NCBI GenBank assembly: GCA_030704615.1
Contig: CM060734.1
Location: 8,866,001-8,930,000 of the forward strand
From: Takakia lepidozioides
Taxonomy: Eukaryota; Plantae; Bryophyta
DNA length: 64,000 nt
Direction: 5' to 3'
A model generated the notes under the pieces. It was given only the letters and a program-made list of their open reading frames with translations. It was not told where the DNA came from and ran no database searches. The position numbers were made by a program, and so were the translations under genes. Position 1 is the stretch's first letter, and each line of letters starts with the position of its first letter. Below are positions 5,811 through 59,590 of the stretch, piece after piece.

Positions 5811-6656
5811 CATTCGCTTCAGTTCCTTTGAATGCGCAGGCATGAAAAGCAGTTATGTGTGCTCTTCATGTGGAAATGGGGTCAGGTAGAATGGTGTGAG
5901 TTGACGTTCACCGTTTTTCCAACCGACCAAGGGGGGGGGGGGAAGAAAGAATTCTTTTTTCTTTTTTGTAGGTGGGGGAGGCTGTCGCCTGGCCCAAGGC
6001 ATGTACTACCTGGAGAATTGCATTCCCTGGTGCTTCCTCCAAACCTGTGTCCCATGCTACTGTGTCTAGGACCTACTATGAGAGTAATAATTCCAAATTG
6101 GAATTGTTGTCTTGCTGGGTGAACTGTTGCTGGCCCTGTGTCACCTGCACCACTTGCTGCTGCTGTGAGGCTATGGCTTCTACCTCCCTTGCTTGTTGTG
6201 CGATCTCTGCAGGTGTTGCCTGCTGAACCTCCGTGTTGGCAGGTGTAGTCTCCATCAGGGATGCTTCGTTGGCCTGCTGCTCGTTTATGTTATAAAATCT
6301 TCTGGTTGTTGATTCTCTCCTTCTCTTTGCAGTGTAGAATCGGCCGTGGAGGTGAACAGTTCTTCCGCCATTGCGCTCGTCGTACCATCGTCTATTCGGG
6401 CCCTCTTTGCAAGTCCGCATTCTTCCTGCAATGGCTGTTCTTCCTCTTCCTGCCCTGCGGCTGTCTCACTTCCATCTTCCTCCAATGTTTCTGCTCGTTG
6501 CATGATTCCCAAAGTGGTATGTTCTTCTGGTATCAAGTGCACCATATGTCGGATCATTTGCAGAAGTATGGGAGTCACCATGGTTACAGTCGACTTGTTC
6601 TTCTTCTTCGTCAGTCGGGTCAATTATTGGATCAGCCTCTTCAACAAGAAGCCTAC

Positions 6657-12600: not shown

Positions 12601-13151
12601 GCGGGAATTCCCTTGGTAGTTGGCAGTCCGGAACAGCTCCCCACTCTTTGGTCGCTTTCCGGCTCGCTCGCTTACTCACTAGTTTTTGGTCACCAACGGG
12701 CTTGCACCGTTCTCGAGGTGACTACTCCCTATACTTCTGTAGTTGTCCGCGGGGGGTTTCACAACCAGCCATGCCATTTTATGGCGAACCACCACGAAAA
12801 CCCTCGACTCCCGGTGATGAGTTGCGGTGAGTCTTGGCCCACTCACCACGGCCCCTATGGACCGTGATGAGTCCCAAGACTCCCCACGACTCCCACCACG
12901 AGGTCTCCGCCCCCATGGTGAGTCCTATGCCACCCCCACTAAGTCCCGCTAAGCTACCACCACCCCTTGTGGAGCCACCCCACCGCAACCCGGTGTGCAG
13001 GGCTCCACCTAGTGAGCGCCTCCGCTTCCCTGAGTGCCTTGGGCACTCAAGGGTGCTTCAGCCCCCCATACCTATCGCTGCCGCTGCCCCCACCACAGGG
13101 GCAGCCCCTCATGTGTCCCGACCCCCTGCCCTCAAGGCAAAGGGCCGCGAC
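6657..13151 (-). mobile_element. Galadriel-like chromovirus LTR retrotransposon, copy E1
   Basis: LTRs 6657-~7370 and 12433-13151 (TGTCGCG...CGCGAC). PBS-Met TGGTATCAGAGC at 12430-12419. gag (KPKEPGTFEG..WLLELEQYF), protease LVDTGASH, RT YIDD, RNaseH HTDASDFAIGG, integrase SMDF/DRDPKF, chromodomain EYEVEAIL..EYLVKWKGY. About 440 bp of gag is deleted at ~11780, and the 3' LTR/PPT junction is deleted at ~7370. Confidence 0.95.
8265..12330 (-). pseudogene. gag-pol of E1 (frameshifted), C-terminal chromodomain
   Basis: ORF pieces 11801-12330, 11137-11775, 10344-10910, 9755-10543, 9319-9672, 8831-9427 and 8265-8864 run in gag-PR-RT-RH-IN-chromo order. Confidence 0.9.
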
Positions 13152-14123
13152 GTCGTACCATCGTCTATTCGGGCCCTCTTTGCAAGTCTGTCTTCTTCCT
13201 GCAATGGCTGTTCTTCCTCTTCCTGCCCTGCGGCTGTCTCACTTCCATCTTCCTCCAATGTTTCTGCTCGTTGCATGATTCCCAAAGTGGTATGTTCTTC
13301 TGGTATCAAGTGCACCATATGTCGGATCATTTGCAGAAGTAGGGGAGTCACCATGGTTACAGTCGACTTGTTCTTCTTCTTCGTCAGTCGGGTCAATTCT
13401 TGGATCAGCATCTTCAACAAGAAGCCTACCCAATTCACGATTTGCCCGTTTGAGGCAAATCAACACCTGCTCTATCAGCTCCTTGGTGCAATAGATGTGG
13501 TTTTGCCTAAGGCAAAGCAAAGTGCTAAGCACTGGGCATATCTTTTTAAAACCTGGATTTTTGCTACGGCTGCATGTGTAGCCCTGATCAGCTTGGTTGA
13601 GATTCTTGAACAGGTCCGTGATTACAAACCTTGGTGGTTTGCTATTATGTGCTGGGACGTCCTGACTGGGAAGATGAGACACCTCCGCCAAGTATTTCTC
13701 GGTCAGTAGGATTCGTGTGTCGCGGACGCTCGTGGATTGAGCGTTGGTGTTGTAGTTCTCCAAGAACTCCCTGCATAGATCGTCGTGCTTGAGGTTCCAA
13801 TCCAGGGTGTTGATGAAATACCGCAAGCCAAGACCGTCCAATGTCTCCTGCATTTCTGCGTCTTGCTCAATCTTCCTCAAAACTAGGCTGATTCTGAAAC
13901 CCACCTGCGCATAAGGACCTGGTGTCTTCCGCTTGGTGCCTGTCATTTCCCTTAGTCTTGTTGTTGCTGTAAGGAATTGGATAACTAATTCATGTATCAA
14001 CAGCAGTATGAAGCACACAGTTGGAAATTGTTTAAACAACAATTTCCAGTTCGTGGAAGAGGAAGTGTGGAGAGCCTTTCTAGGTTTAAGTAGGGGTTCT
14101 GCCCTTTGAGCTTCCACTTGCAC
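13152..14123 (-). pseudogene. Extra ORF downstream of pol (Athila ORF2/'putative plant transposon protein'-like); continues at 6656-6076 beyond E1
   Basis: LDGLGLRYFINTL..DDLCREFLENYN..VRDTRILLTE resembles the 'LVREFYAN..VRG..I' motif of Athila extra ORFs. The Q/E-rich tail lies at 6076-6623. Confidence 0.55.
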
Positions 14124-15374: not shown

Positions 15375-16747
15375 TTCCAGATGGAACAATTCATGTTCCC
15401 TGACTCGTAGAGACTCCTCCAGACCCCATTGCTCATGAGTCCAGGTTTGTAGTGTGGGTATCATGCATTCAACGGGTAATAGTACCTCCGCTCCATACAC
15501 CAGTTGGAATGGTGTATGTTTCGTGTCACCTTCTATGAGGTTCTGAATGCCCATAGTGTCGTGTTCATCTTGGTATCCCAATCTGTTTGATTGGCGTTCA
15601 CTATCTTAGTCAAGATAGTGCACAAGATCTTGTTGGTAGACTCTGCTTGGCCATTACCCTGAGGATAATAAGCAGTACTCTTGTGATGTACAATCATGAA
15701 TTCTTCTGTCAGGCATTTTATGGCATCATTCATAAAATGTGATCCTTGATCACTGACAAACTCCAGTGGACAACCAAATCGTGTGATGATGTTCTCGTAT
15801 AAGAACTTGGCTGTTGACTTGGCAGTGTTATCTCTTAGTGCCTTGGCCTCTACCCACTTGGTAGTGTAATCAGTGGCTATGAGGATGCATTGGTTCTGTG
15901 TATACTTAGCTGGAGGTTTAATGGGTCATACGAAGTCTAGCCCCCAATGCTGAAATGGCTCTGTTAGTAGTGTTGGGTGCATAGCTCCTTTTCCACTTCT
16001 TTCTACTGGTCCCATTCTTTGGCAGACATCACATTGCTGGCAATGTTCATAAGTGTGTCCGAAAATAGTAGGCCACCAATATCCTGCTAGTAATATCTTC
16101 TTTGCTGTCAGGTCTAAACTGAAGTGTCATCCTGCTATTCCTTCATGTAATTCTTGTATCACCATTTTGGCCTATCTCCTCATGATGGAATAATTCCTTG
16201 ATTGTAAGGAATTCCTCTGATCATCGTGTATGGTTTGCTTTTCATTGAAAGCTTTGTCCTGTCATCTTTCGTGTAATCTTCAGGAAATTTTCCTATGTTC
16301 AGATAGTATTTGATTGGCCACTGCCAATCATCTGGATCTTGATCTTGTGGTTCTTGTGGTTATTCCTTGGTAACTGCGTAAGCCCCAATGCTAATGTTGG
16401 TCAATCCTTGAGAGATTGGCTCCTCATTTTCCTTGTCATCGTCTTCTGGTTCCGAGTCTTCCTCATATATTGTTTCTCCTTCATCTGTGGATTTTGCATC
16501 TTCATCTGTCTCAAACAATTTAAGAGAATCTGGAAAATCATAATTCGCTTGAAACACTCCTAGAGCGTCCAAAGGGTCTATATCTTCTTCTTGTGCTTCT
16601 GGTTGAACAACAAATAGAAATGCATCGGGAAGCTGATCCTCTACTCTTTTGTTGGTTCTCCGGTGGTAAGTCTTGACAGATGATCTGTTGTAACATGTAA
16701 TCTTCTAGGTTTATGAACAACTTCAAAATCATATTCATGAAGAAATA

Positions 16748-16928
16748 GACAACCAACATGTAGCCCAGTGGAAATGGGCACATACCACATTGGATGTGGT
16801 TGTGGGTTCAAACCACGGTCGGGTGTGTCATGAAGGTGTCCAACTTTCAGCTGGAAGGCACTGGTAGCCCTTGTGGTGAAGAGACACCATAAGTTACGTT
16901 CCCTTTGGGAGGCGTCATACTTCTTTTT
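16748..16928 (+). mobile_element. tRNA-derived SINE, copy 3 (inserted in RNaseH)
   Basis: A-box TAGCCCAGTGG, B-box GGTTCAAACC and a T tail. 14-bp TSD TTCATGAAGAAATA (16734-16747, 16929-16942), which duplicates the host peptide LFLHE. Confidence 0.88.
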
Positions 16929-17779
16929 TTCATGAAGAAATAATATCCATCGAGCAACCCTGCCACTAGCTAGTGGTCGATTTGCCAAATGAACCAAAGC
17001 CTGATGATCAACAATAAATCTTAAAGCAGGTTCGCATGGGCTAGGGCAGCACAGGCTATCACAAGTATGGGGTATGACAGCTGTGACCCTCATTACTGAG
17101 TGGTCACAGCTCCACACAGCCTCACACAGGTCACAGGGTGCTGTTATCACAAGAAGGGAACATGAATGTGGTATGTCATCAATATAGGGAACAACAGTAC
17201 AGATCATGCTGACGTAACCGACGGTTAGAGTAGTAACAGTTAGTTAGACGGTTAGAACAGCTTGCAGGTAGAAAAGAGGGACTAGCTACGGAAGGCGGAT
17301 CATGACTTCTGGGGCGCATGGACTGGGAGTACACAGGGCGAGTATGCGGAGGAGGAGAGAGACGATGGAGGGAGCTTGATACTTGCAAGCTCTAGAGATG
17401 ATACTATAGAGTAGATTTAGATACACCATGGCTTTGGCCTGACGCTTGTTAGTTATAAATACAATACATACTTCATACTCACACTGTGTAGAGAGACCTG
17501 AGAGAAGCTGTGGAATGTGTACCTAAATATAAGATGGGACTTGGCAGATCATAGAAGCAATCTGATACATAACTCTAGGCTGTAAGGTATCTTAAATAAA
17601 CCATGAATGCAAGAAGGAATAGAAATATGAAAGCACCTCCATGATACGCTAGGTGTAGGTCATGACTGATTGTTCTGAGCGGGCTGAGTACTTAGAGATT
17701 TCTAACTCTTCTACCTTAGAGTTCCCACCCCGGATAGCTAAGGGATGGGTGAGTAAAAGCTGCTCAACAAAGACTTAAT

Positions 17780-18965
17780 GCTCATGCCGATCACATTTCC
17801 CGGTTGTCAGAGAAAACAGGAGACGAGCCTATTGACGATGATTTTCCGGATGCGTTCTTGTTCTCCATAGAGACATTTCCTCCATGGTATGAGCACATTG
17901 CTCAATATTTGAGCACACTAGAATTTCCCCCGGGGATGGATCGACACGCACGAAGAAGGCTTCGATTGCGCAGCATGAAGTATGCCCTGGTGGGAGGGCA
18001 GCTTTATAGAAGGGGATTGGATGGACTCTTAAGGCGATGCGTCACCCCAGAGGAGGCTCCCCAGATTTTAGAGTCGGCTCATGACAGTATATGCGGAGGG
18101 CACTTTGCAGGGCGGCTCACGGTGTAGAAAATTTTGAGGGCAGGATACTACTGGCCCTCCATGTTCAAGGATACGCACATGCATGTGCAAAAATGCGATT
18201 TGTGTCAAAGGTACGCAAAACGGGATAACAGGCTTGGAATGCCGTTAGTTCATACACTCCCTCTTGCTCCGTTTGAGAAGTGGGGGATCGACTATGTAGG
18301 GGGAGTGCACCATGCATCGAGTCAGCAAAATTGCTACATCATCGTAGCCACCAAGTATCTAACCAAGTGGGCAGAGGCCAAGGCGGTTAAGAAGGCCAAT
18401 CGATGCACAGGTGGAATGCGCCAATCAGACATTGTGCAACATCCTCTCCAAAACAATTCGGGAGCACAAACGGGATTGGGATACCAAGTTGATCTCGGCC
18501 TTGTGGGCGTTTCGCACGACCCATAAAGTAACTACTCGACACACCCCCTTTCCATTGGTTTATGGGGTGGAGTCCATCTTGCCGATCGAGACAAAAATTC
18601 CATCTTTACGACTGGCCATCACCGAAAGATTGGCAACATCCGAGTCATTGAAAGAGCGACTTGAGATGTTGGATGGATTGGATGAACTCCGGCAAGCGGC
18701 AGCTCAACACATAGAAGCGGTACAACGAAGGAGGAAAGCTCGCTTCGATCTTAAGCACAAAAAGAGGATTTTTGATCCAAGAGATCTGGTACTGTTATTC
18801 GACAGTCGGAACGAGGAGTTCAAGGCCAAGTTCGACTCATATTGGGTGGGACCATACTTAGTCAAGACAGTCTTTGACAATGAATCTTTACAATTGGAGA
18901 CACTATGAGGAGTGGAGTTACCCAACCTGGTAAACGGTGTCCGATGCAAGCACTACTACATGTGA
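17780..18965 (+). pseudogene. Integrase remnant of a second non-chromovirus Gypsy element
   Basis: ADHISRL..PWYEHIAQYL..LYRRGLDGLLRRCV..HDSICGGHF..AGYYWPSM..CDLCQR..FEKWGIDYVG..TKWAEA..ALWAFRTT..TPFPLVYG..WVGPY. Contains stops and an internal deletion. Confidence 0.85.
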
Positions 18966-19433
18966 GTTTTCCTTAACCAATGAAACCCCCCCGTCTTAAG
19001 GGAGAAATCTTTAGGATTTCGTCCTGGTTTTTTCGGAAGGAAATGTTGGTATTTCCTATCCATTGACTCATTGGTTATTGGAGTTCATAACGAGCTGGAG
19101 TGCGGGGAATTTAAATTGCAATAATCCAATGAAACTTCTCCACTGGGAAGCAGTCAGTAGGGCTCTTACCCAGGTAGGTTATTGAACACCCTTTCTTGGA
19201 GTTTCAAGAGTAGATCTTGGGATGCGTGGCAACGCAGTTGCATTAAAGAGGTGATTTGTTCCCCAGTGTGATTTTTGGGTAGTTATTAGAATCCACAATG
19301 ACATACCTTGGGATGCGGGGCACATAGAGTGCAGTAATCTAACCCACGTCGTAGAATAAAAACTTGTTTGATATGACATAAGCTATGAAAGCTATGACCA
19401 TCCAATTGCCAAGTAGAAGACTTCATACATCTT

Positions 19434-19621
19434 TGTCGTGCGCATACATATCGCTACACAACTACATCGCTGTCCAAAACCACACAACACATGTGCACGC
19501 CACACACTAGTATACCACTAGTCCACCACTAGTCCAGCCACTAGTCCAACCACTAGGCTACAACTAGTCAGTCACTAGGCTGCCACTATGCTGCCCACTA
19601 TGGTAGTCACTAGTCCACACA
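19434..19621 (-). repeat. Probable 3' LTR of M1 with ~10-bp CCACTAG tandem repeats
   Basis: Starts with TG immediately after the PPT. About 10 CCACTAG-like units at 19500-19615. The distal boundary is uncertain. Confidence 0.55.
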
Positions 19622-19880: not shown

Positions 19881-20535
19881 CTATCCCAAGTAGTGTGGAC
19901 ATAACCAATCTCCATCAGGAACCCTCTCAAAGGTGGTGTCAAGCATCCCATATGCCAACCCTCTTGAGCATCGATCACACACCAGCATGGTGGCTGCCCC
20001 TTTGGCAGACCCACAGAGCATGCACCTCAAACCTGCAGGTACCACTGCCAAGTTTGGGTCAACTTTGCCATCGACATTGGGAAGGCGACATGGCGCACAA
20101 TTACGCATATGTTCTTTCCAAGTCATGCCATCCCGACCCTCCAAGATCAGGACTCCTGATGGCAACACCTCTCGAACACTCAGAATAACACGCCCTGTAG
20201 TGACATCCAGGGTCGTAGGAGCAGTCTGCTGCAAATAAACATAGTCACCAGGGCTAGACCTCCAAACCAGGACGATATCCTCCACCACGTATAGTGGCAT
20301 ACCTCAACGTATCACGGTGTTGTGCAATGGCAAGGTTCTCAAAAGCCATGGGCATGACTTTCTTGAACAACTCTGCACGCTGATCACATGCACGTACCCA
20401 CACGTCCGGATTGTCAAGGTTAAGGATTTGAGCATTGTCCCTACGAATGGCTGCAGGCAAATCCGGCTCTCGGCCAAAGAGAAGGAAATATGGTGAGAAA
20501 GAGGCAAGTGATGCTTGTTTGCTGAACCTGTAGTC
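19881..20535 (-). pseudogene. Integrase C-terminus plus PHD zinc finger of M1
   Basis: YRFSKQASLASFSPYFLLFGREP and PGDYVYLQ. Then CMLC..MLVCDRC..(WHMGC, recovered across a frameshift)..VPDGDWLCP, a C4HC3 PHD pattern whose final Cys position reads Tyr here. Confidence 0.85.
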
Positions 20536-21500
20536 CATGCTCCAATCCGTATGTAGCTGAAAGGGACGCCCCCTGATAGGTCGTCTCAGGATAGGCGCCG
20601 AGGTCAACCTCGCCTTGAGCTCTTGAAAAGCTCGTTCCTGATCTTCCCACTGCACTCCTGGTCCACCTTGGTCAGCTTGGTTAGAGCCTTTGCAATGGCA
20701 CTAAATCCCTTGACAAACCGTCTATAATAGTTTGTCAACCCCATGAAAGCTCGAACTCAACTCACATCCGTAGGGCGTGGAATTTGTGCAATGGCCTCTA
20801 TCTTTGTCTGCTGTACCCCCAATCCTCGAGGATATATCATGTGACCCAGATACTCAATCTGGTTGTGGAAAAACTTGCACTTCCCCGGATGCAACTTCAA
20901 TCCGGCGCTCTCAAGCGCTCCAATACCACCTGAAGGTGTCTCTCATGCTCCTTCACCGTAGCACTAAAGATGATGATGTCATCTATGTAGCACCGAGCAA
21001 AGTCTACCCCTGCTAGAATCTTATCCATGACTCTCTGAAATTCTGTAGGAGCATTCTTAAGCCCAAATGGTAAGAACCGCCACTGATATAGGCAATCTTT
21101 GCCGTGCTCATTGATCCCCCATAATGTCATCTTCTGCTTGTCCGCCTCCTTGATTGGCAACTGGTGATATCCGGATCGTAAATCTAAAGTGCTAAAGACC
21201 TTAGCATGCCCGATGGCATCAAAGATCTCCTCTGGTGTTGGCATGGCATACTTATTGGACTTGGTCTGACGATTTACAGGCCGGTAATCACCGCACATAC
21301 GTCTCTCCGTCCAATTGCCATAGACATCCTTCTTGGCTGGCATCACTGTGGCTGAAGCATACTCTCCACCAGAGAGCTCCACCAAACCTGCCTCCCAGAG
21401 ATCTTGAGTCCTCATCTAAATCAAAGACCTCTCCATGTCACTGTATCTATAGGATCTCCGAAAGATTGGCGTGTCAGTGGCCAACTCTTTATATCTCTTG
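20535..21500 (-). pseudogene. Reverse transcriptase and RNaseH start of M1
   Basis: [48 protein letters not shown]. Confidence 0.93.
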
Positions 21501-21989
21501 ACCCTTCAGTGCTCCCAAGTCCTTCAAACTGAAGGCAAAGCAATTCCTGTAAGCCCTCAGGAACCGCCGTATACGTCGTCTCTCTCCTCCGGTGACAATG
21601 GGTCCAATGTCAGGCTCCCAATTGTCCTCCGTAACTGCAACCTTAAGTCCAGTGGGCTTAGAGGTAGAGGACGCGTCCAATGGTTGCTATGTTGCAACCT
21701 CTTGAGCAGTACTCCCTACCTGCTCAGTCAATGACAAGGCCTCATCCTGCCCCATCATCTCATCCTCGAGGACTTCCTCAACCGAGAAAAATCCCCAACC
21801 TCATCCATCACGCCACCTTGGCTGCCAACTCCCTCTGAACCTCGAGCACCTCCCACGTGTGCCATGGATGCCTACACCCCGTGGTCCTCTCATGCTCGCC
21901 CCCACTCACTGCCTGTACCGTCTCGGTAGGCAGAGAGACCATCGAGGGAAGTGTACTTTGCACTCTGCGTTGCTCAGCCATAGCCAAGC

Positions 21990-22940
21990 TGATAATCCAG
22001 GTCAAGCAATTGAGATCCATTGCTTGCCCCAACACCTGACGACGTGATGCCTCAGAAAGAGACGCACCGCGTGGTACCAGTGGTAAAACCCATTGCCCGC
22101 TCACGCTCGTCAGCATTAGGCTCCACTAACTGCTGCAACTGAGCATCCCACAGGAGGCCAGGTCCACTATCCCGGAAAACATGCGATCCTGGGAAGCTGA
22201 GCAGTGTAGGTAATGCTGCTCGTGGTTGACCCACCTTGTTGACCACTGCCAAAGGCGAACGGTCATCGTGTCTCACACGCTGAGACTGCCTCCCTGTGTC
22301 CAAAATGCTATCCACTGTGAGGTGTGCTGGCCGCTGCACCCCATCAAATGCACGCTTGAGCAGTGCGGGTGGCATCAAGTTAGTCCACCATAGCCGTGGA
22401 CGATGAGCCCGTGACCCCACTGTAGCTGCATCTAGCAACACTGCTGACCCAAGCCACGACCGGACTTGATGCACACTGGCCATCACCCTGGCCCGAGAAT
22501 CGCCCATCAGTGGCACATTCTCCAAGATGTATGCTGGAGATACAGCTTGATGAAGCTGCAAGTGGCGCAAAACCCGCACCATCTCCCAAAACAGACCCGA
22601 CCTCGAGTCTCGCAATCCATTGCCATGCCCGGCTGATGAATGCCCTTGGCAGGGCCAACCTGCCACTACCAGATCAATGGAGCCAACCCGCTCCAAATCC
22701 TGCGCCCCCAGCAACGAAATGTCTGCTGGCAAGGCCTGCTGATATCCACGAACTGCAGACACCGGCAACAACTCAGGGTACTGCTGCACCAACTGAGCAA
22801 CATGGAAAGTGAAACGCGTCGTGCAGTCGTCCCTCTCCACATACAGGTAACGCCGAACTCGTACACCTGCTGTAACACAACAGCCAATCCGGTGCTGATC
22901 CCGCCAAACAAGTCCAGAAGACAAATGCCTTCATCCGGAT
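21990..22940 (-). pseudogene. C5 cytosine DNA methyltransferase domain (DNMT3-like) within pol of M1
   Basis: Motif I LLDLFGGISTGL, II RYLYVE, IV DLVVAGWPCQ, VI YILENV, VIII AHRPRLWWTNL, IX ERERAMGF, X RRQVLGQAMD. Canonical order, with frameshifts near 22875 and 22055. Confidence 0.92.
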
Positions 22941-23234: not shown

Positions 23235-23680
23235 CTAGTGTCGGCATCTTTTCGCTGGGCAACCGCAACTCCTCCTATGAACGTCACAGGAGCTGCACAC
23301 GCCGCCCTCCCCTGACTGCCATCCAGGCCTATAGGAAGCTGACTCCTCCCAAAAATCCAGGGTGAAGCCCATGGGGTACAACACTGCCCCACCAACCAGG
23401 ACATCGTATGAGACCGCGTCTGTCACAATGGCCTTGGCTCGCATCACTGAGCCATCTGTAGGGTGATCCGGCCGTAGTCTAGCCATGTCATGCCCCGAGC
23501 CTGCTCCGATCCTCCCAGAGACGTCTGTATCTGGAAAGGACAAGGCTCCATATCCGCCTCCGTGAGGCCCAAGCCTGCAATAGCAGCTCTGCCCAGCATC
23601 AATGGCTGAGCTCCCGAGTCCAACAAGACCCGCAGTGGCCGGTACCTCTTGCCTGCCGGTCCACTCAAACAGAAAATGCA
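23235..23680 (-). pseudogene. Aspartic protease of M1
   Basis: RPLRVLLDSGAQPLMLG ... YDVLVGGAVL. Confidence 0.85.
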
Positions 23681-24399
23681 TCCTGGTTGTCTAACATGAC
23701 AACTCCAGGTGTCACCATGGCGCGCTCAATGGCTGGCCTAGCTGGCAGCTCCATCAACCTGGCAGCTGCAGCTTGCCATGGGCGCCGCCGTGGCAGTCTT
23801 GACCCTCAAATCCGAGGATCCTCCGGCACTACACCTCCCACTATCTCCGCAGAAGATGAAGTAACCTCCCCACTCTCACAGAGTGTAGCTGCCAGCCTGA
23901 ACACCTCAGCTGGTCTTACCCCCGGCGTCGCAATCATGGTAGCCGAGAACAATGGAGCCTGGCACACAGATGTGGCCGCTCCTAGCAGCACACTAGCTGC
24001 CGTAGCCTTGGCAACACTAGGTAGTGGTGCTGCCCGTGTAGCTCTCCCCAATGGCATAGTAACCTCCGCCTCGGTAACAGTCGGGCGAGAACTAGGTGCC
24101 ATGGATGGCGTCGACACTGTCTCCGCCAATGTGAATGACTGAGGAAGCCTAGCCTGACGGCTTGCCTCCCACGCTGTGGATCCAACTCCACCTCTGCACC
24201 TCGTGGCTCAGGAACTCGTGCTGCTCCTCGAGTCACGCTGCAGCAGACTCCACCTGCACTAGTGGTAGTGCTGCTCCACACATGAATCCATGCCTCCCAT
24301 ATCTCCTCCCTCAGGAGCAGGAGGTGGACCATCCGGCCTTGGAGCCGGTACCACCCGAGCTGTAGCCATGGCAGCGAGCCTCTGCTCTAGCTGCTGAAG

Positions 24400-25814
24400 C
24401 CGGTTGGCCATGCCTTGGTCAACACCCTGACCTCCGCGTCCTTGGCCATGTTGAGCTTGCCCTTGGCCTGCACCTCGTGCCTGGCCCCTCGTCCTCTCTG
24501 GGCTGCTCCACCTCGCCCCCGGCCACCATTGTTCCCTTGGAACTGGCCTGGGCGCAACTCAGGATGCAAACCATAACACTGGGCCTCTCCATGCCCGTGC
24601 TTGCCACAATGCCCACACTGCAACTGTGCAGGCTGTGCATGTGCCGGCCCTTTGCCTCCCTCTGGGCAATCCTTCTTGACATGGGGTCCTCCACATGTCC
24701 AACACACCACCTCCGCCCGTTGTTGGCCTGCAAATGAAGGAGAGACCCCTGCATCTGAGGTCCTCTCTGCCCTTCCCTGAGCTTCACCTGGCCCCCTTGT
24801 TGCCTTGAGCACGTTGAGGTAGTGGTTGGCTAGGAGCACCACTACCCCGTGGTGTCTCCTTAGCAAATCCCACCATGACCACTCGTTCCTCCACCATTGA
24901 GCTCTATCCGCTCTGCCAGCAAAAACACATTTGCGGGTTGGGCCGCTTGTAGGAGAGTTGCATCCCGCACCCTTCTCCTCAGCTCCTTGTCCAATATCCC
25001 ATACCAGAATTGGACTGCCTGAGCTTCCGTAACCCCTTGGGTTACATTTATCAAGCGCCTCATGCGAGTGAAAGCCTCCCTCAAGCTCTCAGTAGGCTTC
25101 CGTTGGAACTCTTGCAAGCTCCGCAACTTCTCTGTCCTCACCCCTTGGTAGTTCCCTCTCAACTCTTCGAAGAACTCCACAACAGGGTTGAAGGCAGGCA
25201 CGGGTACTAGTGCTGGTGCGGTAGTGGCTTGGGTGGACGTCGTAGCTACTGTACCACCAGTCCCACTGCTGCTTGCTGAAGCTGTGCAGCGGCAGGTGTA
25301 GCCACTGCCCTCGTGGCTCTAGTGCCCCTAGTGATGGAGACATAGTCGGGTGACCAGTACATCCTCCACTCCTCGATCTCAACCTCATGCCCCCGCCTGA
25401 ACTCATGGTAATCATCCATAGGCGGCCCCTCAAGGTGCTGAAACAGCCCTTCCATGCCATGAAAGGCGTAAATAGTTGTGGATTGCGCATTTGCTGCAAA
25501 TCACACCAACTATCAAACTCTTGGATAAAATCATCCAACTCGATGGTGCCCACCGCCCCAGAGTACCTTCGTGGCCCCTTGGTAGCTCCATACATCTCCT
25601 CCATTGTGTCCCACAACAATGGCAAGGAAACAACTTGCACCGCCGGTGTGAGTCCTCCTGATTCACAATCCGAATCAGAACCTTCCGTAGAAGACACAGG
25701 AGGTGAAGGTGGCCTAAACCGCACACCTCGTCTCGTGTACCCACTAGTATCGCTAGTGCTCGAACCGGCACTGTCCCAGCAACTAGTGGCACCTCCGTGT
25801 TGACAAACTGTCAC
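24400..25814 (-). pseudogene. gag of M1 with two zinc knuckles
   Basis: RRYSG..LDDFIQEFDSW; LQEFQRKPTESLREAFTRM; CWTCGGPHVKKDC and CGHCGKHGHGEAQC. Confidence 0.8.
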
Positions 25815-26489
25815 TCAACCGGTCATGAACATGTCCCTAACCCCCTCTCCACAAGGTAACCGGGTAGAGAACCTGTTGCGGCTTATGGTTTGGATACTAG
25901 GTTCCTAACATAGCCTACACCTGCACCTGCATCCACCGCAAGCACTCCTATGGTTGGCTGGTCATCACCTCCAACCTCACCACAGGAGAAACAATGATGG
26001 TCTGACTGGTCATCACCCCAGCCTCACCATCGACAGCATGCTCTAGGACTGGCCGGTGATCAAATCCGGACCAATCACCTATAAAAACAAGCGCCCACAC
26101 AAAACTAACATGGCGCACAGTCAAGCATGCAGGTATGGAGGGGATCCAAACACAAGAAATCAGAACGACAACTCCCCCACACCAAAAACAACTCCACGGT
26201 GTTGCTCCTGCAAGGACACCCCAGCCCAAACCCGGACTGACTCTTGCCTCCACCTACGGAAAGGTCTTGGCCTAATGAGAGGGTGGAAAACTACGAGGAA
26301 GAGAAGCTAAAGCAATGCCTAACCCCAGCATGCCCTCATCCCAACACTCTTCCTCTCCTCTCTTCCCTCACTTGCATGACCATGGGAATATCATGAAGAT
26401 ACTCCTCAAACCGCCCTCCACGAGCTTCAAAATTCGGCCTTCAAGACCACATGCCAGTCCTTAGGCAGTCCACCAGTGCCTCCACGAGT

Positions 26490-26875
26490 CAGCACAGGCC
26501 GCACAGGTCAACACGGGCACCACAGACCAGCACAGGCCCACACACACTGGTCACAGCCATTGGCCACAGCACAGGTTCACAGCCCCAAAGGGTCACAGTC
26601 ACAGCCTGTCACAGCCCTACACAGGTCACAGTCACATTCCACAGGAGGCCACCACAGCCTGTCACAGTCACACAACACACAGTCACATGTCACACACAGG
26701 GTTTCACAGCCCGTCACAGGGCACAGTCACAGGGTTCACACATCACAGCCCCAAAGGCCACCACAGCCTGTTCACACAGCCTGTCACAGCCCCTCACAGC
26801 ACAGCCCGTCACAGCCCCCCACAGGCACAGCCTGGTCACAGCACACACCACATGGTCACAGTTTCACAGCCCCAT
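26490..26875. repeat. CACAG-based low-complexity tandem array in the M1 leader
   Basis: Dozens of (GT)CACAG units. A similar patch occurs at 17045-17145. Confidence 0.8.
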
Positions 26876-27319
26876 CCATGGCCACTCATGGCAGTTTAGC
26901 CATTTCTCCAAGGGGTTTAGCCACGCCAAGCTAGGGTTTGTGTCTCTTGGACTCTAGGCTTCTTTGCACCGAGCTATGGCGGCTGTGAGAAATCAGCAAG
27001 GTATTCTTGCTCTTTGGCCCCCACACACCACCAATAGTAGCCTAATTCCAAAGGAAGATGTTTGCAACAAACTAAGTGCACAAGCTTCTTTTAACTCCCA
27101 AACACGCCATTGCTATGGCGACTAACCAAACATGGCTGACTTCCAGCCCTTGTAGGCACTCATTCACTTGCCATAGCATGCCCTTCCTAATCCAGCCCCT
27201 GCACCTGCTGCTTCAAGAGTTGTGCTCCAGCTTGAAGTTGAAACCCCAACTCACATATGCCCTACAAGTGCTTTTATTTCACCCCAAGTGGAAACCAGCC
27301 CTAGCCCTTCCGTTCTAGC

Positions 27320-27700
27320 TCTCTAAAGCTTGAAAACAAGAGCCTCAATGGGCTGAAGGCATGCTCCACACATGCCCCACTCTCACCATAAGAGAATCAG
27401 CCTTTGCTTCATTTCTTGCACCCACAAACCTGAAAATACAAGCTTCAGCGGGCTGAAAGCATGCTCCACACATGCCTACAGGGAAACCAGCCCCTTCCTT
27501 TCTTTCTTGCACTCCCAAACCTGAAAGTACAAGCCTTCAACAGGCTGAAAGCATGCTCCACACATGCATTGCCCTCACATAAGGGAAGTCAGCCCTTCCT
27601 CTTCCTTGCTTGCCCTCCAAGCTTGAAGATGGAAGCTTCAATGAGCTGAATACATGCTCCACACATGCAACCTCTTCACACAAGAGTATCAGCCCCCTAT
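27320..27700. repeat. ~95-100-bp tandem repeat (4 units) in the M1 leader
   Basis: GCTGAAAGCATGCTCCACACATGC-like motif at about 27352, 27452, 27544 and 27644. Confidence 0.8.
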
Positions 27701-33497: not shown

Positions 33498-36300
33498 TGC
33501 CGGTTCGAGCACTAGCGATACTAGTGGGTACACGAAACGAGGTGTGCGGTTTAGGCCACCTTCACCTCTTGTGTCTTCTACGGAATGTGCTGATTCGGAT
33601 TGTGAATCAGGAGGACTCACACCAGCGGTGCAAGTTGTTTCCTTGCCATTGTTGTGGGACACAATAGAGAAGATGTATGGAGCTACCAAGGGGCCACGTA
33701 GGTACTCTGGGGCGGTGGGCTCCATCGAGTTGGATGACTTTATCCAAGAGTTTGATAGTTGGTGCGACTTGCAGCAAATGCGCAATCCACAACTGTTTAC
33801 GCCTTTTATGGCATGGAAGGGGCTGTTTCAGCACCTTGAGGGGCCGCCCATGGATGATTACCATGAGTTCAGGTGGAGGCATGAGGTTGAGATCGAGGAG
33901 TGGAGGATGTACTGGTCACCCGACTATGTCTCCATCACTAGGGGCACTAGATCCATGAGGGCAGTGACTACACCTGCAGCTGCATTAGCAGCTTCAACAA
34001 GCACCAGTGGGACTAGTGGTACCGTAGCTACGACGTCCACCCAAGCCACTGCCGCACCAGCACCAGTGCCCGTGCCTGGCTTCAACCCTGTTGTGGAGTT
34101 CCTCGAAGAGTTGAGAGGGAACTACCAAGGGGTGAGGACAGAGAAGTTGCGGAGCTTGCAAGAGTTCCAATGAAAGCCTACTGAGAGCTTGAGGGAGGCT
34201 TTCACTCGCATGAGGCGCTTGATTAATGTAACCCAAGGGGTTACGGAAGCTCAGGCAGTCCAATTCTGGTATGGGATATTGGACAAGGAGCTGAGGAGAA
34301 AGGTGCGAGATGCAACTCTCCTACAAGCGGCCCAACCCACCTTAGCAAATGTGTTTTGCTGGCCGGATAGAGCTCATACATGGTGGAGGAACGAGTGGTC
34401 ATGGTGGGATTTGCTAAGGAGACACCACGGGGTAGTGGTGCTCCTAGCCAACCACTACCTCAACATGCTCAAGGCAACAGGGAGCCTCAGGTGAAGCCCA
34501 AGGAAGGACAGAGACGACCTCAGAAGCAGGGGTCTCTCCCTTCATTTGCAGGCCAACAACGGGTGGATGTGGTGTGTTGGACATGTGGAGGACCCCATAT
34601 CAAGAAGGAATGCCCAGAGAACGGCAAAGGGTTGGCTCAGGTACAGCCTACACAGTTGCAGTGTGGGCATTGCGGCAAGTTTGGGCACGGAGAGGCCCAG
34701 TGTTATGACATGCATCCTGAGTTGTGGCCAGGCCAATTCCAACTGAACAATGGTGGCCGGGGCGAGGTGGAGCAGCTCAGAGAGGACGAGGTGGCCAGGC
34801 ACGAGGTGCAGGCCAAGGGCAAGCTCAGCATGACCAGGGACGAGGAGGTCAGGGTGCTGACCAAGGCATGGCCAACCGGCTTCAGCAGCTAGAGCAGCGG
34901 CTTGCTGCCATGGCCACAGCTCAGGTGGTACCAGCTCCAAGGCCTGAGGGTCCACCTCCTGCTCCTAAGGGAGGAGATATGGGAGGCATGGGATTCATGT
35001 GGGGAGGAACACTACCACTAGTGCAGGTGGAGTCTGCTGTAGCCGTGACTCGAGGAGCAGCACGAGTTCCTGAGCCACGAGGTGCGGAGGTGGAGTTGGA
35101 TCCACAGTGTGGGGAGCAAGCCATCAGGCTAGGCTGCTTCAATCATTCACATTGGCGGAGACAGTGTCGATGCCATCCATGGTACCTAGTTCTCGCCCGA
35201 CTGCTACCGAGGTGGAGATTACTGTGCCATTGGGGAGAGCCACACGGGCAGCACCACTACCTGCTGCCAAGGCTACGGCAGCTAGTGTACTACTGGGGGC
35301 GGCCACATCTGTATGTCAGGCTCCATTGTTCTCGGCTACCATGATTGCGACGCCAGGGGTGCGACCAGCTGCAGTGTTTAGACTGGCAGCTACACTCTGT
35401 GAGAGTGGGGAGGTCACTTCATCTTCTGCGGAGATAGTGGAAGATGTAGTGGCGGAGGGATCCTCAGAGTTGAGGGTCAAGACTGCCACGGCGGCGCCAT
35501 GACAAGCTGCAGCTGCCAGGTTGGCGGAGCTGCCATCTAGGCCAGCCATTGAGCGCGCCATGTTAAACAACCAGGATGACATTTTCTATTTGAGTGGACC
35601 GGCAGGCAAGAGATAATGGCCACTGCGAGTCTTGTTGGACTCAGGAGCTCAACCATTGATGCTGGGCAGAGCTGCTATTGCAGGCTTGGGCCTCACGGAG
35701 GCGGACATGGAGCCTTGTCCTTTCTAGATACAAACATCTTTGGGAGGATTGGAGCAGGCTCGGGGCATGACACGACGTGAGTTGGCTATCAGACTACAGC
35801 CGGATCATCCTGCAGATGGCTCAGTGATGCGAGCCAAGGCCATTGTGGTAGACGCGGGCTCGTACGATGTCCTTGTTGGTGGGGCAGTGTTGTACCCCAT
35901 GGGCTTCACCCTGGATTTTTGGGAGGAGTCAGCTTCCTATAGGCCTGGATGGCAGTCAGGGGAGGGTCGGCGTGTGCAGCTCCCTGTGACGTTCATAGGA
36001 GGAGTTGCGGTTGCCCAACAAGGCAAGATGCCGACACTAGCAGCATTCACAGCTGTAGTGACTTGGCTTGGAGAGTTGCTAAAGGGCAACGCTCATTCAG
36101 AGGATGACATACCTCCAGGAGAGCAGGATGACATGTATGGTATGGCGGAGTTGCCTGCCATGGTTGCTCAGACTCCATTGTGGGGCACGAGCAAGGATTT
36201 GTAGCGAGTGGTTGATCGATGGGTGCAACAAGCCTAGGTAGAGGCTTTTATACCATCAGGAGAGGAGGAGAGTGCGGGGATTTCACCAGGACCACCTCAG

Positions 36301-37102
36301 TTGTCTCCATTGGACACCACACCTATTGTGTGGCAGTATCCGGATGAAGGCATTTGCCTTCTGGACTTGTTTGGCGGGATCAGCACCGGATTGGCTGCTG
36401 TGCTACATGCAGGTGTACGAGGTTGGTGTTACTTGTATGTGGAGAGGGATGAGACTGCACGACGCGTCTCACTTTGCCATGTTGCTCAGTTGGTGCAGCA
36501 GTACACTGAGTTGTTGCCGGTGTCTGCGGTTCGTGGATATCAGCAGGCATTACTAGCAGACATTTCCTTGCTGGGGGTGCAAGATTTGGAGCGGGTTGGC
36601 TCCATCCACTTGGTAGTGGCAGGTTGGCCTTGCCAAGGGTATTCATCAGCTGGACATGATAATGGATTGCGAGACTCGAGGTCGGGTCTGTTTTGGGAGA
36701 TGGTGCGGGTTTTGCGCCACTTACAGCTTCATCAAGCTGTAACTCCAGCATATATCTTGGAGAATGTGCCACTGTTGGGCGATTCTCGGGCCAGGGTGAT
36801 GGCTAGTGTGCATCAAGTCGGGTCGTGGCTTGGGTCAGCAGTGTTGCTGGATGCAGCTGCAGTGGGGTCACAGGCTCATCGTCCACGGTTATGGTGGACC
36901 AACTTGATGCCACCACCACTACTCAAGCGTGCATATGATGGGGTGCAACGGCCAACACACCTGACAATGGACAACATCTTGGACACGGGGAGGCAGTCTC
37001 AGCGTGTGAGACATGATGACCGTTCGCCTTTGGCAGTGGTCAACAAGGTGGGTCAACCACGAGCAACACTACCGACACTGCTCAACTTCCCAGGATCGCA
37101 TG
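36301..37102 (+). pseudogene. C5 DNA methyltransferase domain of M2 (motifs I-VIII in one frame; IX-X lost)
   Basis: LLDLFGGISTGL, LVVAGWPCQGYS, YILENV and AHRPRLWWTNL lie in one uninterrupted ORF, cut by an LTR at 37103. Confidence 0.92.
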
Positions 37103-40100
37103 TGTCGCACACCTCAGTTCGGTAAACTCCCCTTCAAGTCATAGTTACTCGCTTTGATGCGCGCGCCTGACTCCCAACCTGGCCGCCGGGCCAACTTGGA
37201 GTTTCGGCTGCTCACCGGGACATAACGGTCCCCTTCGCTTCCCTCTAAACCCTCCACCTATTTGGGACTAGGAGAATTCCCTTTGGTAGATGGCAGTCCG
37301 GAACAGCTCCCCACTCTTTGGTCGCTTTCCGGCTCGCTCGCTTACTCACTAGTTTTTGGTCACCAACGGGCTTGCACCGTTCTCGGGGTTACTACTCCCT
37401 ATATACTTCTGTAGCTGTCCGCGGGGGTTTCAACCAGCCATGCCATTTTATGGCGAACCACCACGAAAACCCTCGACTCCCGGTGGTGAGTCGCGGTGAG
37501 TCTTGGCCCACACCGCGGCCCCAATGGACCGTGATGAGTCCCAAGACTCCCCACGACTCCCACCTCGAGGTCTCCACCCCATGGTGAGTCCTATGCCACC
37601 CCCACTAAGTCCCACTAAGCTACCACCACCCCTTGTGGAGCCACCCCACCGCAACCCGGTGTGCGGGGCTCCACCTAGTGAGCGCCTCCGCCTCCTTGAG
37701 TGCCTTGGGCACTCAAGGGTGCTTCAGCCCCCCATACCTATCGCTGCCGCTGCCCCCACCACAGGGCAGCCCCTCATGTGTCCCGACCCCCTGCCCTCAA
37801 GGCAAAGGGCCGCGACACACACCCCTACCAACAGGGAGTCGATGTCCTCATCGACTTGTCCATTTTGTAGAAACGAACATCCAAGTTGTGGCGTCCCACA
37901 TCAAGGAGTTTGTTTCCGTACCATGGCGTCCCATGGCAAAGAACCAAACCCCACACTTGACTCACTCTCCACTAGCTAGTTCGGCCGACTTCCTCCAAGT
38001 CCCGGCCAAGGGTGGAGCCTCTCCAGCTCCTCCCAGTGCACTCTTCTTGGCCTACTTCAAGGCCAAGGAACGATCCTCCCCGAGGATCGAATCGCCTTAC
38101 TGCAACAACATTGCTTGCGATCGCTCATGATGCCGCTTTTGGCATCACCTTGAGCAAGGGTTCACCTGGAACCCTCTTTGACTAGGAAGAGATAACCTTG
38201 AACCAACCGTGCGCCCCAATCACTACAATTGGGTCCGCCTTGGAATGCTGGCCTGAGGTACGGGAACACGCCGAAGCCGCACTACGACTTCGTCCCGAGG
38301 CTACACGATTATAGTACGTGAACGGAAGCACGTAGCTTCCGCGTTAGCCCGCACTACAAGGCAACCCCCTCGGTAGCGCAGTTTAGTACGCGCACGCGCC
38401 AGGTGCGCACTAGCACTTGAACTCCCAAATAAGGCGCAAGTTTCCTTGCCCCTTGGATGGGAGTCACCCGATTTCGGCACTGCGCAAACACACGATTAAC
38501 CCAATTTACCTCTCCCACTTTTGTAAGCTAGCATGCATTCTACACACCAGCCAACCACACCATGCATCACCATTCCAAACACAATAGGACGCACAATATT
38601 TGGAACCCATTTCCTTTATCACAAATTTTTGTACAATACAAGTTTTTGCAATCGGATTCCTGAGCTAGCTAAACCGGGCTAAGCATGCATTTCCTCCCCC
38701 ACGCTCCAAGGTTGATGTCCCCATCAACGCTTCTTCCGCTTTTGAGGTCGCCCTTCGAACGCTGCAACTGCCTCGGATGCGTTTCCCATTTCTGAGGCAC
38801 GCACCCAAGATGCCTCCACAGATGATAGCCCTTCCATTTGACGAGATACTCCGTTTCTCGGTTCTTGAACCTCCTCGACTTAAGTATTGCCTCCACCTCG
38901 TACTCGGGTTCATTTTCATGATCCAACAGCATAGGTGGCGGACGCAACACTTGCTGCCGATTCGGACGTGCTTCATCTTTGAAGTAAGGCTTCAAAAGGA
39001 GACATGGAATACTGGGTGCACCTTGCTGTTTGCTGGCAGCTCCAATTCATACACATCCTCATTCATAACCCTCCGAATGCGAAAGGGACCCGCATACGGA
39101 GGTACGAACTTCGGACTCACCGGAGGTAGTCGAAATTCTTGATGTTCAACCAGACCTCTGTGCCTGCCTCAAACTTCACTTCCCTCCGCTTCCGATTCGC
39201 CTGCCTTTCATACCGTTTCCTAGCTTTGGCAATGTTGTACTTTGCGAGCTTCAACAAACGCTCGCGTTCTTCCAGTACCGCCGCTACTGCCGGTTCCTCA
39301 ACGTCCTGGGCGGCCCAACTTGTCGGCACCAGAGGTGCTTTTCCATAGACCAACACAAAAGGGGAAACTCCCGTTGCGGAGTGTTCTGTGTTATTATAAC
39401 AGAACTCTGCCGCGTCTAAGTGTTCCATCCAGTCTGATTGGTCTGCCGACACGTAATTCCGCAAGAATTGCTTCACTACGGAATTCACTCTTTCCGTTTG
39501 GCCGTCCGTCGTAGGTCGGAAGGCGGTGCTCTTCAGCCTCGTCCCCATCTTCTTCCAAAGTGCTCTCCAGAATTTACTCGTAAACTTTGGATCGCGGTCC
39601 GAGACAATATCTTCGGGACTCCATGATGCTTTAAGACGTGGGCGAAGTAAAGTCGCCCTGTCTGCCGCGTTGCCGTCTCCTTGGTGGGGATGAAATGGCC
39701 ATTTTACTGAACCTATCTACCACCACCATGATTGCATCGAATCCTTTTGACAGCGGCATAGCAGTCATGAAATCCATCGAGACGCTTTCCCAAGTCCCCT
39801 CTGGAATCGGCAAGGGTTGTAACAGCCCCGCTTGCTTTTTGTACTCGCTCCGGTTTTGTTGGCATGTGGTGCATGTCTTTACATACTCCTCTGCCTCCTC
39901 CCTCAGTTTGGGCCAGAAATACTCTTTCTTCAAGAGTGCCGCAGTGCGCTTGGCTCCGTGGCCCGCAAGCGGGCTATCATGGCATTCTCTCAAGAGACTA
40001 TCCCTGATCCCTCCCTTTGGCACGTAGACGTTTTTGCTTATACCGGAGCAGTCCGTTTTGCAAGTGGAACTGCGATTTAACCCCCATTCTCAAGTCTGCA

Positions 40101-57752: not shown

Positions 57753-58649
57753 GAGTGGGGGCGAGCAGGTGAGGACCACGGGGTGCAGACATCCATGGTA
57801 CACGTGGGAGGTGCTCGAGGTTCAGAGGGAGTTGGCAGCCAAGGCGGCGGTGATGGATGAGGTTGGGGATTTTTCTCGGGTTGAGGAAGTCCTCGAGGAT
57901 GAGATGATGGGGCAGGCTGAGGCCTTGTCATTGACTGAGCAGGCATGGAGTACTGCCCAAGAGGTACTGGACGCGTCCTCTACCTCTAAGCCCACTAGAC
58001 TTTAAGGTTGCAGTTACGGAGGACAATTGGGAGCCTGACATTGGACCCATTGTCACCGGAGGAGAGAGACGACGTATACGGTGGTTCCTGAGGGCTTACA
58101 GGAATTGCTTTGCATTCAGTTTGAAGGACTTGGGAGCACTGAAGGGTCAAGAGATTCGTATTGAGTTGGCCATTGACACGCCAATCTTTCGGAGACCCTA
58201 TAGATACAGTGACATGGAGAGGTCTTTGATTCAGATGAGGACTCAAGATATCTGGGAGGCTGGTTTGGTGGAGCTCTCTGGTGGAGAGTATGCTTCAGCC
58301 ACAGTGATGCCAGCCAAGAAGGATGTCTATGGCAATTGGACGGAGAGACGTATGTGCGGTGATTACCGGTCTGTAAATCGTCAGACCAAGTCTGATAAGT
58401 ATGCCATGCCCACACCGGAGGAGATCTTTGATGCCATTGGGCATGCTAAGGTCTTTAGGATCGCATCACAGTGGCAACCACAGATGAAGGCTGGAATTCC
58501 ACTCTGAGGGATCCAGGGAAGAGTCCAGTCCACATATGGGGATCAGTACATCAGAGGTATTTAAGGTGCTTTATTCATTGAATGGAAAAAATGTGTGTTC
58601 TGGTGCTTTACAATATATATATTCTCACACAATTGGCCCCTCTGTGCAG

Positions 58650-59590
58650 TACGCCATGTACACTCTCATGGTCTTCGATATGTGGCTCAACGACATCCCT
58701 GTTGCATACATCATCTCTTCCAGAACCCAAGCTACTGATTTGACTCGTTGGATGTTTGCTCTTCGCCAAAGGATGGAGGCTACTCAAGCGGATTGGCGTC
58801 CTAATGCGTTCATCGTCAACGATGCGGATGCCGAGATCAATGCCATAGGGTCAGTCATGCTGCCCTTCCTTCCCATGACCTGTGCATGGTTCACCTGAGT
58901 CCTTCCCTGCATGCCACATTAGGGGGATGAGTTTGCAGGATCAGATTGGGGGATGAGTGAGGGGGATCTGTCACATGGATTGCCTCCTTACGGTGCTTTG
59001 TGGATGTCTCAACAGAGAAACCTTTATGGGTGTGCCCATTTTCCTGTGCCTTTGGCACGTTCAAAAAGCATGGTTGAAAAATGCCATAGAAAAAATCAAG
59101 GATGCCCAACTCTGGTCCGACGTCTCGCAAAGTATGGGGACATAATGTACAATAAAGGTGGTCCCATTGGGCAATCCTCCCAAGCATAAAATGTATTCCA
59201 ATTGTATGGGTAGAAAGTAGAGAGAGAGAAAAGACTCCGGCCAAAGCCGGCGTAACTAAGAGCCACTTTGCCTCACGGCTACTGCCCCCTTTCGAGGGTG
59301 GGCCCTATGTTAGAATGTAAATACCCTACAGCGGCATTGTTTTTCCACTACATTCACACATGGTGGATTCCTAAAGTAGGCATGTGGGTGGTTGGAGCTC
59401 GCAACATCCCACATGCTGGCCAAGATACAAATGCGGGGATTGAGGCCTAGCATTGCAACTTGAAGAGGCGATTGTCCCAAACCCGAGAGAAGATGGATGG
59501 ACGTCGGCTGGATTGGTTGGTGCACATACTCACAGGCAGACTCTTGACCCATTACTGGTACATTTCTAACCTCAAAGTTGAAGGCTTTCC
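58650..59590 (+). pseudogene. MULE/Mutator-type transposase remnant (intron-containing)
   Basis: YTLMVFD...IPVAYIIS; AFIVNDADAE; FLCLWHV; QDTNAGIEA*H.NLK; RRLDWLVHIL..HYWY. Contains in-frame stops. Confidence 0.75.

Follow-up and report, generated by a model that had tools for sequence, protein, structure and literature searches.

The window, a 64,000-nucleotide stretch of the Takakia lepidozioides genome (contig CM060734.1, positions 8,866,001 to 8,930,000 of the forward strand), carries a decayed Ty3/gypsy element on its minus strand. Starting from about 25.8 kb, gag, protease (PR), a DNA methyltransferase (DNMT), reverse transcriptase (RT), a cut RNase H (RH), an integrase (IN) tail and a PHD finger follow one another (Table 1). 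This copy is dead: two frameshifts break the PHD finger, Tyr occupies its eighth zinc-ligand position and the integrase core is deleted. At the deletion junction 20539/20538, RNase H is cut short and the integrase zinc finger and core are almost entirely gone, and loose contig ends fall at 20539 in three of the four public sequencing runs shown. Loose contig ends also fall at 19434, the end of the window copy, which has a single B end only; neither an A-type 5' repeat nor a matching target-site duplication was found for it. A second copy on the plus strand is likewise dead, and a short deletion has removed the region corresponding to the in-frame stop discussed below.

Table 1. Features of the window copy, of a second copy in the window and of full-length copies in related loci
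Feature	Position	Strand	Evidence or remark
End of the family 3' 'B' repeat (GACA end), which is the end of the copy	19434..19472	-	match to B units of L031 and L070
PHD finger, C4HC3 type, last integrase domain	19881..20030	-	intact in relatives
SH3-like integrase C-terminal domain, ending in NCAPC(H/R)LP	20079..20261	-	family HMM, alignment
Integrase core, last part, with long helix	20262..20538	-	rest of core and zinc finger deleted
RNase H, N-terminal part only	20539..20700	-	Pfam RT_RNaseH_2, E 1.5e-7
Reverse transcriptase, frameshifted, YIDD at 20989-20978	20817..21415	-	Pfam RVT_1, E 7.9e-24
TAG CAA CCA, in frame, between DNMT and RT	21681..21689	-	UAG-CARYYA type I readthrough context
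DNMT3-like C5 cytosine methyltransferase, frameshifted	21976..22911	-	Pfam DNA_methylase, E 3e-13
Aspartic protease region	23373..23647	-	family HMM; LLDSG just upstream in another frame
gag, two Cys/His knuckles	24390..25814	-	Pfam Retrotrans_gag, E 6.5e-4
Second copy, gag-PR-DNMT part, 92% identical	33498..37103	+	split by nested chromovirus insertions
Second copy, remainder, ending inside RT	57753..58458	+	without integrase or PHD
Full copies in related loci	L005 1679-10805; L031 2703-11908; L070 2539-11858		4-bp target-site duplications, exact in two of three

The surroundings are rich in other mobile DNA. At least five nested chromodomain-bearing Ty3/gypsy copies, 90-95% identical and with LTRs of about 720 bp, occupy 6657-13151 and 37103-57752, and the one at 6657-13151 is flanked by a 279-bp direct repeat (6378-6656 and 13151-13429). 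Further decayed integrase-coding elements lie on both strands at 15500-19000 and 58600-59200, and a stretch beyond 58460 resembles a different transposase. Short tandem repeat arrays are found upstream of gag at 26380-27700, where they are GTGAC-rich and include units of about 100 bp at 27290-27695, and ACTAGT-rich repeats occur in the 3' region at 19480-19620.

The PHD finger begins on the minus strand with the C-x2-C motif CMLC at 20024, continues in the same frame with MLVCDRC (19988-19968), passes into a different frame for GWHMGC (19960-19943) and regains the first frame at VPDGDWLCPHY (19922-19890), before a stop codon at 19881-19883 closes the ORF. The two compensating frameshifts are thus placed near 19960 and near 19930, and seven of the eight Cys4-His-Cys3 ligands are kept across them, with Tyr instead of Cys at the eighth, as an earlier note on this DNA had read from the letters. 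PHD (PF00628) is the best Pfam family of the uncorrected ORF (E 2.2e-4), whose 21.6 bits fall under the Pfam cut-off of 24 bits, and it is present in 17 of 21 longer homologues. At both break places, contigs from the four public runs carry single-base indels relative to the window, so the frameshifts are not common to all copies. The finger follows the SH3-like integrase tail at the very end of the ORF, and the equivalent slot in a nearby chromovirus (8268-8936) holds Chromo directly after SH3_Tf2-1; the proposal that the PHD sits where chromoviruses keep their chromodomain therefore holds. We ruled out a host PHD gene that had landed beside the element, since relatives encode PHD and integrase in a single frame. 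A separate family-wide feature is the motif NCAPCHLP just before the PHD (20079-20102 in the window, minus strand), possibly an extra zinc site.

Searching with an alignment of integrase and PHD returned 261 long proteins, and domains were counted with family profiles on 120 of them: 118 had the PHD, 97 the DNMT and 95 both in one ORF. The query contained the PHD, so this set favours PHD bearers. A search with the DNMT alone avoids this preference; 11 of its 74 matches reach the integrase tail, nine of these carry the PHD, and the remaining two break off at or in the integrase tail or PHD. Pfam alone mostly misses the DNMTs of the family; the count of 97 comes from the family profile. We also examined 80 loci from metagenomes, many being near-copies. 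A trace of the PHD was seen in all 65 assessable loci, with eight ligands in frame in 32, and in L035 and L061 the finger is gone through a deletion that reaches into the SH3-like domain as well. All eight ligands are present in 71 of 201 family proteins, the others being mostly different parts of the element, and no Chromo match was found in the 41 family proteins scanned. The closest named relatives come from Marchantia polymorpha, Calypogeia fissa and Sphagnum, and liverwort, moss and green-algal proteins are among the named ones with an intact finger. The PHD is in frame with its eight ligands in intact relatives, and over this domain pN/pS was 0.10-0.55 in all eight pairs of diverged subfamilies. 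It was about 2 in all three very close pairs, as expected for decaying copies, and these pairs add no support. The PHD is a normal C-terminal integrase domain of a Ty3/gypsy family that carries a DNMT3-like domain. Many Marchantia gene models annotated as 'PHD-type domain protein' or 'DNA (cytosine-5)-methyltransferase' (P0037-P0042, P0007 and P0131-P0142) turn out to be fragments of this DNMT3/PHD retrotransposon.

A structural model of a natural relative is of low confidence (mean pLDDT 55.8, 62-77 over the PHD), and it places beta-strands in the SH3-like domain. With this weak model the best Foldseek rows were PHDs, superposed over about 48 columns with an rmsd of 1-2 A and none at E<=0.001, and the fold matches include MLL4 PHD2/3 with ASXL2. 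Among 78 PDB sequence matches to an intact relative, the best 60 include CHD4, PHF12, KMT2C/D, DPF, BHC80, KDM5-PHD1, ATXR5, UHRF1, BAZ2, ORC1b and AIRE, and no ING, BPTF or TAF3 name stands among these best 60. The finger had been described beforehand as of BAZ/CHD/KDM5-PHD1 style, and the sequence and fold matches do fall in the CHD/BAZ/KDM5-PHD1/BHC80 structural class. For the full-length relative P0185, the best PDB matches were Ty3 RT and foamy-virus integrase.

The methyltransferase shows the motifs LFGG, GWPCQ, ENV and RxR (at 22911, 22663, 22528 and 22411), and the top 21 of 34 PDB rows in its search were DNMT3A/B/C (E 7e-6 to 3e-4); by these motifs and matches it is classed as DNMT3-like. 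A DNMT3-like domain co-occurs with the PHD across the family and was present in all 25 loci showing both protease and integrase, which bears out the pairing with a methylation writer seen in the earlier note. In the window, the DNMT is placed ahead of RT and some 1,000 residues away from the PHD, and the in-frame UAG-CAA-CCA, a strict CARYYA context, separates Gag-PR-DNMT from RT-RH-IN-PHD. Among the loci, 23 of 29 DNMT ends carry TAR-CAR-YY at this position (17 TAG, 6 TAA), these stop-bearing loci (L003-L080) being mostly near-copies of one family; the strict form occurs in two of the 23 (L036 and L037), the last base being C or T in the others. At 20 of 26 junctions, DNMT and RT are in a common frame. 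Of 713 decay stops inside domains, only one precedes a strict CARYYA, a background that applies to the strict pattern only. Across the four runs (697, 4, 17 and 1 contigs), which sample other copies in the host, no variant at or above 5% was listed in the nine stop bases, and positions 21679, 21680 and 21692 beside them do vary. We considered whether the stop is a decay mutation and rejected this on the conserved context and the lack of variants in the four runs. In plant viruses, UAG-CARYYA is known as the type I readthrough motif (PMC5382211), and the conserved UAG-CAR-YY(A) is likely a readthrough stop; the DNMT would then be made in Gag-like amounts. The more distant proteins P0215, P0294, P0173 and P0180 of branch B, the branch that holds the window, have no stop there. 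No literature linking CARYYA readthrough to retrotransposons was found.

The family falls into two branches with different domain orders. Branch A, whose named members are from Haematococcus, Tetrabaena and Pleodorina, reads RT-RH-DNMT-IN-PHD-tail, with only the integrase between DNMT and PHD, whereas branch B, with Klebsormidium, bryophytes and the window, reads PR-DNMT-RT-RH-IN-PHD. The split has SH-aLRT 99 in an RT-RNase H tree of 49 rows subsampled from 126, a single chromovirus serving as outgroup; as its rooting is weak, we make no claim on which DNMT order came first. Two proteins (P0261 and P0267) cover the element from protease to PHD without a DNMT and are nested inside branch A (SH-aLRT 96), so that a DNMT-less, PHD-bearing clade sits within a DNMT-bearing branch (SH-aLRT 96 and 99). 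This lineage has likely lost the DNMT and retained the PHD. In branch B, full copies show direct repeats that are split, together with TGTC...GACA ends and 4-bp duplications, and the repeats are arranged as A1...B1-A2-B2 in the related loci L005, L031, L070 and L077. The combination of DIRS-like repeats with a DDE integrase in full copies implies an unusual mode of reverse transcription.

The branch A proteins extend beyond the PHD. Tails there contain a stretch that the alignment reads as Tudor/SH3-like in 82 of 103 cases, and 56 of the 59 tails of at least 230 aa contain an amino-methyltransferase-like domain (DPFAGSG, with SPPF or SPWF in some); P0312, P0264, P0231 and P0301 are tail-bearing examples. 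All 56 proteins with this domain also carry the DNMT. The nearest Atlas clusters to these tails are phage N6-methylase-like (0.94), and the tail type does not figure among the DAM-LTR types in the examined sections of a preprint (10.64898/2026.05.21.726589).

What the finger may read was judged from residues mapped on KDM5A numbering (10.1101/715474), with acidic-wall positions taken from PMC5415848. The K4me3 cage position, two residues before the His, is Gly in the window and in all 13 PHDs of its clade, and a cage Trp was found in none of 104 family PHDs; a K4me3 reader is thus unlikely in the window clade. The R2-binding Asp after Cys3 and the A1-pocket Pro and Trp, which correspond to KDM5A D312, P331 and W335 (10.1101/715474), are kept in 13 of 13, and the window-clade PHD likely binds the H3 N-terminus, to judge from these contacts. 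The K4 side of the pocket is different. The window has Ala at the positions equivalent to KDM5A D292/E305/D306 (K4 pocket and acidic wall), its clade lacks acids equivalent to D292/E305/D306/D315, and an acid at C3-6 or C3-5 occurs in 1 of 13 window-clade PHDs, 4 of 19 in the rest of branch B and 53 of 69 in branch A. Mean net PHD charge is +2.2 in the window clade versus -5.1 in branch A. BAZ1A-PHD, also without such acids, bound DNA and no histone peptide (PMC5636791), and the acidic wall is absent from many PHDs that do bind H3 (PMC5415848). Because the K4-pocket acids have been lost, K4me0 selectivity is likely weaker in the window clade than in the algal branch, and strict selectivity is not established there. 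The earlier idea of an H3K4me0 reader is therefore only partly supported: the missing K4me3 cage and the kept A1 and R2 contacts agree with it, and the loss of the K4-reading acids from all but one of the 13 clade members does not.

We consider an insertion-targeting role of the PHD a reasonable hypothesis, and the reading we lean towards, with somewhat more belief than doubt, is that the PHD is a nucleosome tether on the free H3 N-terminus that would bias insertion away from H3K4me3 and would do so apart from the DNMT. The integrase-borne finger would bind the H3 N-terminus (A1-R2) and so tether the integrase to nucleosomes, and insertion would be biased away from H3K4me3 chromatin in a manner analogous to the chromodomain of chromoviruses. 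Gag-PR-DNMT would be the abundant main product and RT-RH-IN-PHD a minor product of leaky readthrough at UAG-CAA-CCA, from which the protease would then free the IN-PHD part. Carried along in the particle, the DNMT would methylate cDNA of the element itself or the new insertion, presumably without an ADD-like allosteric link to the PHD. A precedent for targeting comes from Gypsy-7a_cRei, a PHD-bearing Gypsy with intergenic insertion 2.6 times above chance, a bias that may reflect selection according to its authors (PMC9940879). The joint presence of PHD and DNMT over a very deep tree could mean that the two cooperate, which would speak against separate action.

The main biochemical rival, by analogy with BAZ1A-PHD, is DNA binding: the window-clade PHD would have become a zinc module for DNA or the nucleosome surface that helps the integrase to hold target or donor DNA and has ceased to read H3. 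The net basic charge and the lost acidic wall (acid in 1 of 13) fit such a role, for which BAZ1A-PHD (PMC5636791) and the DNA-binding cross-brace finger of piggyBac (PMC5861402) are precedents. However, DNA binding would not explain why all 13 clade members keep the R2 Asp together with Pro and Trp of the A1 pocket, and a missing acidic wall is compatible with H3 binding in many PHDs (PMC5415848); we regard this rival as unlikely.

It also appears improbable that the reader and the writer are coupled, such that the DNMT3-like enzyme is recruited by the PHD to nucleosomes with H3K4me0 in the manner of an ADD domain, either in the unprocessed polyprotein or in the pre-integration complex. The two domains do share one ORF in 95 of 120 homologues, the DNMT accompanies protease and integrase in 25 of 25 loci, and the algal branch combines the order RH-DNMT-IN-PHD with a K4 or acidic-wall acid in 53 of 69; coupling of this kind is more plausible in branch A because the DNMT abuts the integrase there. 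Yet co-occurrence follows from shared descent and is no independent test, the DNMT takes two different positions while the PHD stays on the integrase, and in P0261 and P0267 the PHD has likely outlasted the DNMT. In the window clade, for which the earlier note had suggested that the reader-writer logic of DNMT3 may be rebuilt inside a polyprotein, the DNMT precedes RT, so that it and the PHD lie at opposite ends of Pol with the conserved stop between them. That proposal is further weakened by the nested lineage with a PHD and no DNMT, and by the commonness of PHDs in transposable elements with no reported DNMT.

A structural or protein-binding appendage for particle assembly or a host factor, with no part in site choice, has an analogue in PHDs that bind non-histone partners, such as MLL4 PHD2/3 with ASXL2, and the three target-site duplications seen share no common motif, a number too small to judge; since the finger occupies the slot of the chromodomain that directs chromovirus integration (cited in PMC6673714) and its H3-pocket residues are conserved, we give this little credence.

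PHD-bearing Gypsy polyproteins and Gypsy-DNMT3 elements are each already published, and what we describe is a real feature in a dead copy whose family is known and whose layout is a variant one. KnitGypsy-Dnmt3 of Klebsormidium nitens (de Mendoza et al. 2018, PMC5890265), like the window family, is a Gypsy Pol with a DNMT3-related domain, and the DIRS-like repeats given in a legend of that paper match the split repeats of branch B; 'Gypsy-DNMT3' of streptophytes also appears in the preprint 10.64898/2026.05.21.726589. The K. nitens protein KFL_009030040 (P0180) was a search match with the order PR-DNMT-RT-RH-IN and falls on the window's side of the RT-RNase H tree. It is one ORF, whereas the window clade has the conserved stop between DNMT and RT, and it is partial and ends before the PHD position, which its RT sister P0221 fills with a PHD. 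Beyond KnitGypsy-Dnmt3, named proteins place the family in liverworts and a moss. The term 'PHD' is absent from the text and three supplement files of PMC5890265, whose Fig. 4c may show one.

On the side of the reader, PHDs have been described in the Gypsy Gag-Pol from Gypsy-7a_cRei and further Chlamydomonas elements (PMC9940879) and in CR1 and Chlamys elements, and are called widespread in retrotransposons (PMC8557442, PMC6673714). Gypsy-7a_cRei resembles the window family in having the PHD inside Gypsy Gag-Pol, where it is proposed to limit harmful insertions, but the passages on these Chlamydomonas, CR1 and Chlamys elements mention no DNMT, unlike the window family. Since PHDs are known retrotransposon accessories, the PHD alone is unsurprising. 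Selgy was dropped as a further PHD-bearing element, as no paper joining Selgy and PHD was found and the text of the REXdb paper has no 'PHD'. The chromoviruses, of which the window holds Tcn1-like copies, likewise place a histone-reader-type domain after an SH3-like integrase tail, whereas the window family has a PHD instead of the chromodomain, split repeats instead of paired LTRs, and a DNMT. EpiLTRs also combine a reader and one or more DNA methyltransferases in one LTR-type element, but theirs are a chromodomain, a DAM and a DNMT sister to DNMT4 (10.64898/2026.05.21.726589), as opposed to a PHD and a DNMT3-like domain. The window clade is without a second methylase, but an amino-methyltransferase-like domain is present in 56 of the 59 long tails of branch A. 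The ADD-catalytic module of animal DNMT3A/3B shares with the window family a DNMT3-like catalytic domain and a cage-less PHD-type fold, whereas in the window family the reader is not beside the catalytic domain but separated from it by RT-RH-IN and an in-frame stop. The ADD has a GATA-like finger and autoinhibition, with no visible counterpart in the window family. We found no text on a PHD and DNMT3 pairing, nor on a readthrough-type stop or amino-methyltransferase tails in such elements, in literature that mostly did not extend to subscription papers, Repbase and figures.

A wider and doubtful reading would make the green-lineage family a self-contained chromatin toolkit. The PHD would tether the pre-integration complex and the DNMT to unmodified H3, so that new copies are placed and methylated as silent; the algal chain of DNMT3, integrase, PHD, Tudor-like stretch and phage-like amino-methyltransferase would be a third, DNMT3/PHD type of EpiLTR; and the leaky stop of the bryophyte branch would set the ratio of writer to reader.

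How plant retrotransposons choose their insertion sites, and why some carry methylases of their own, are open questions. The family described here provides a natural comparison, in which an integrase-PHD occurs with a DNMT adjoining it, far away behind a probably leaky stop, or lost, and which spans PHDs with the K4-reading acids kept and lost. As intact Marchantia PHDs are annotated as genes and chromatin maps exist, targeting can be tested without recourse to the dead copy. The same annotations carry a practical consequence: some bryophyte 'PHD-type' and 'DNA methyltransferase' gene models are parts of a transposon.
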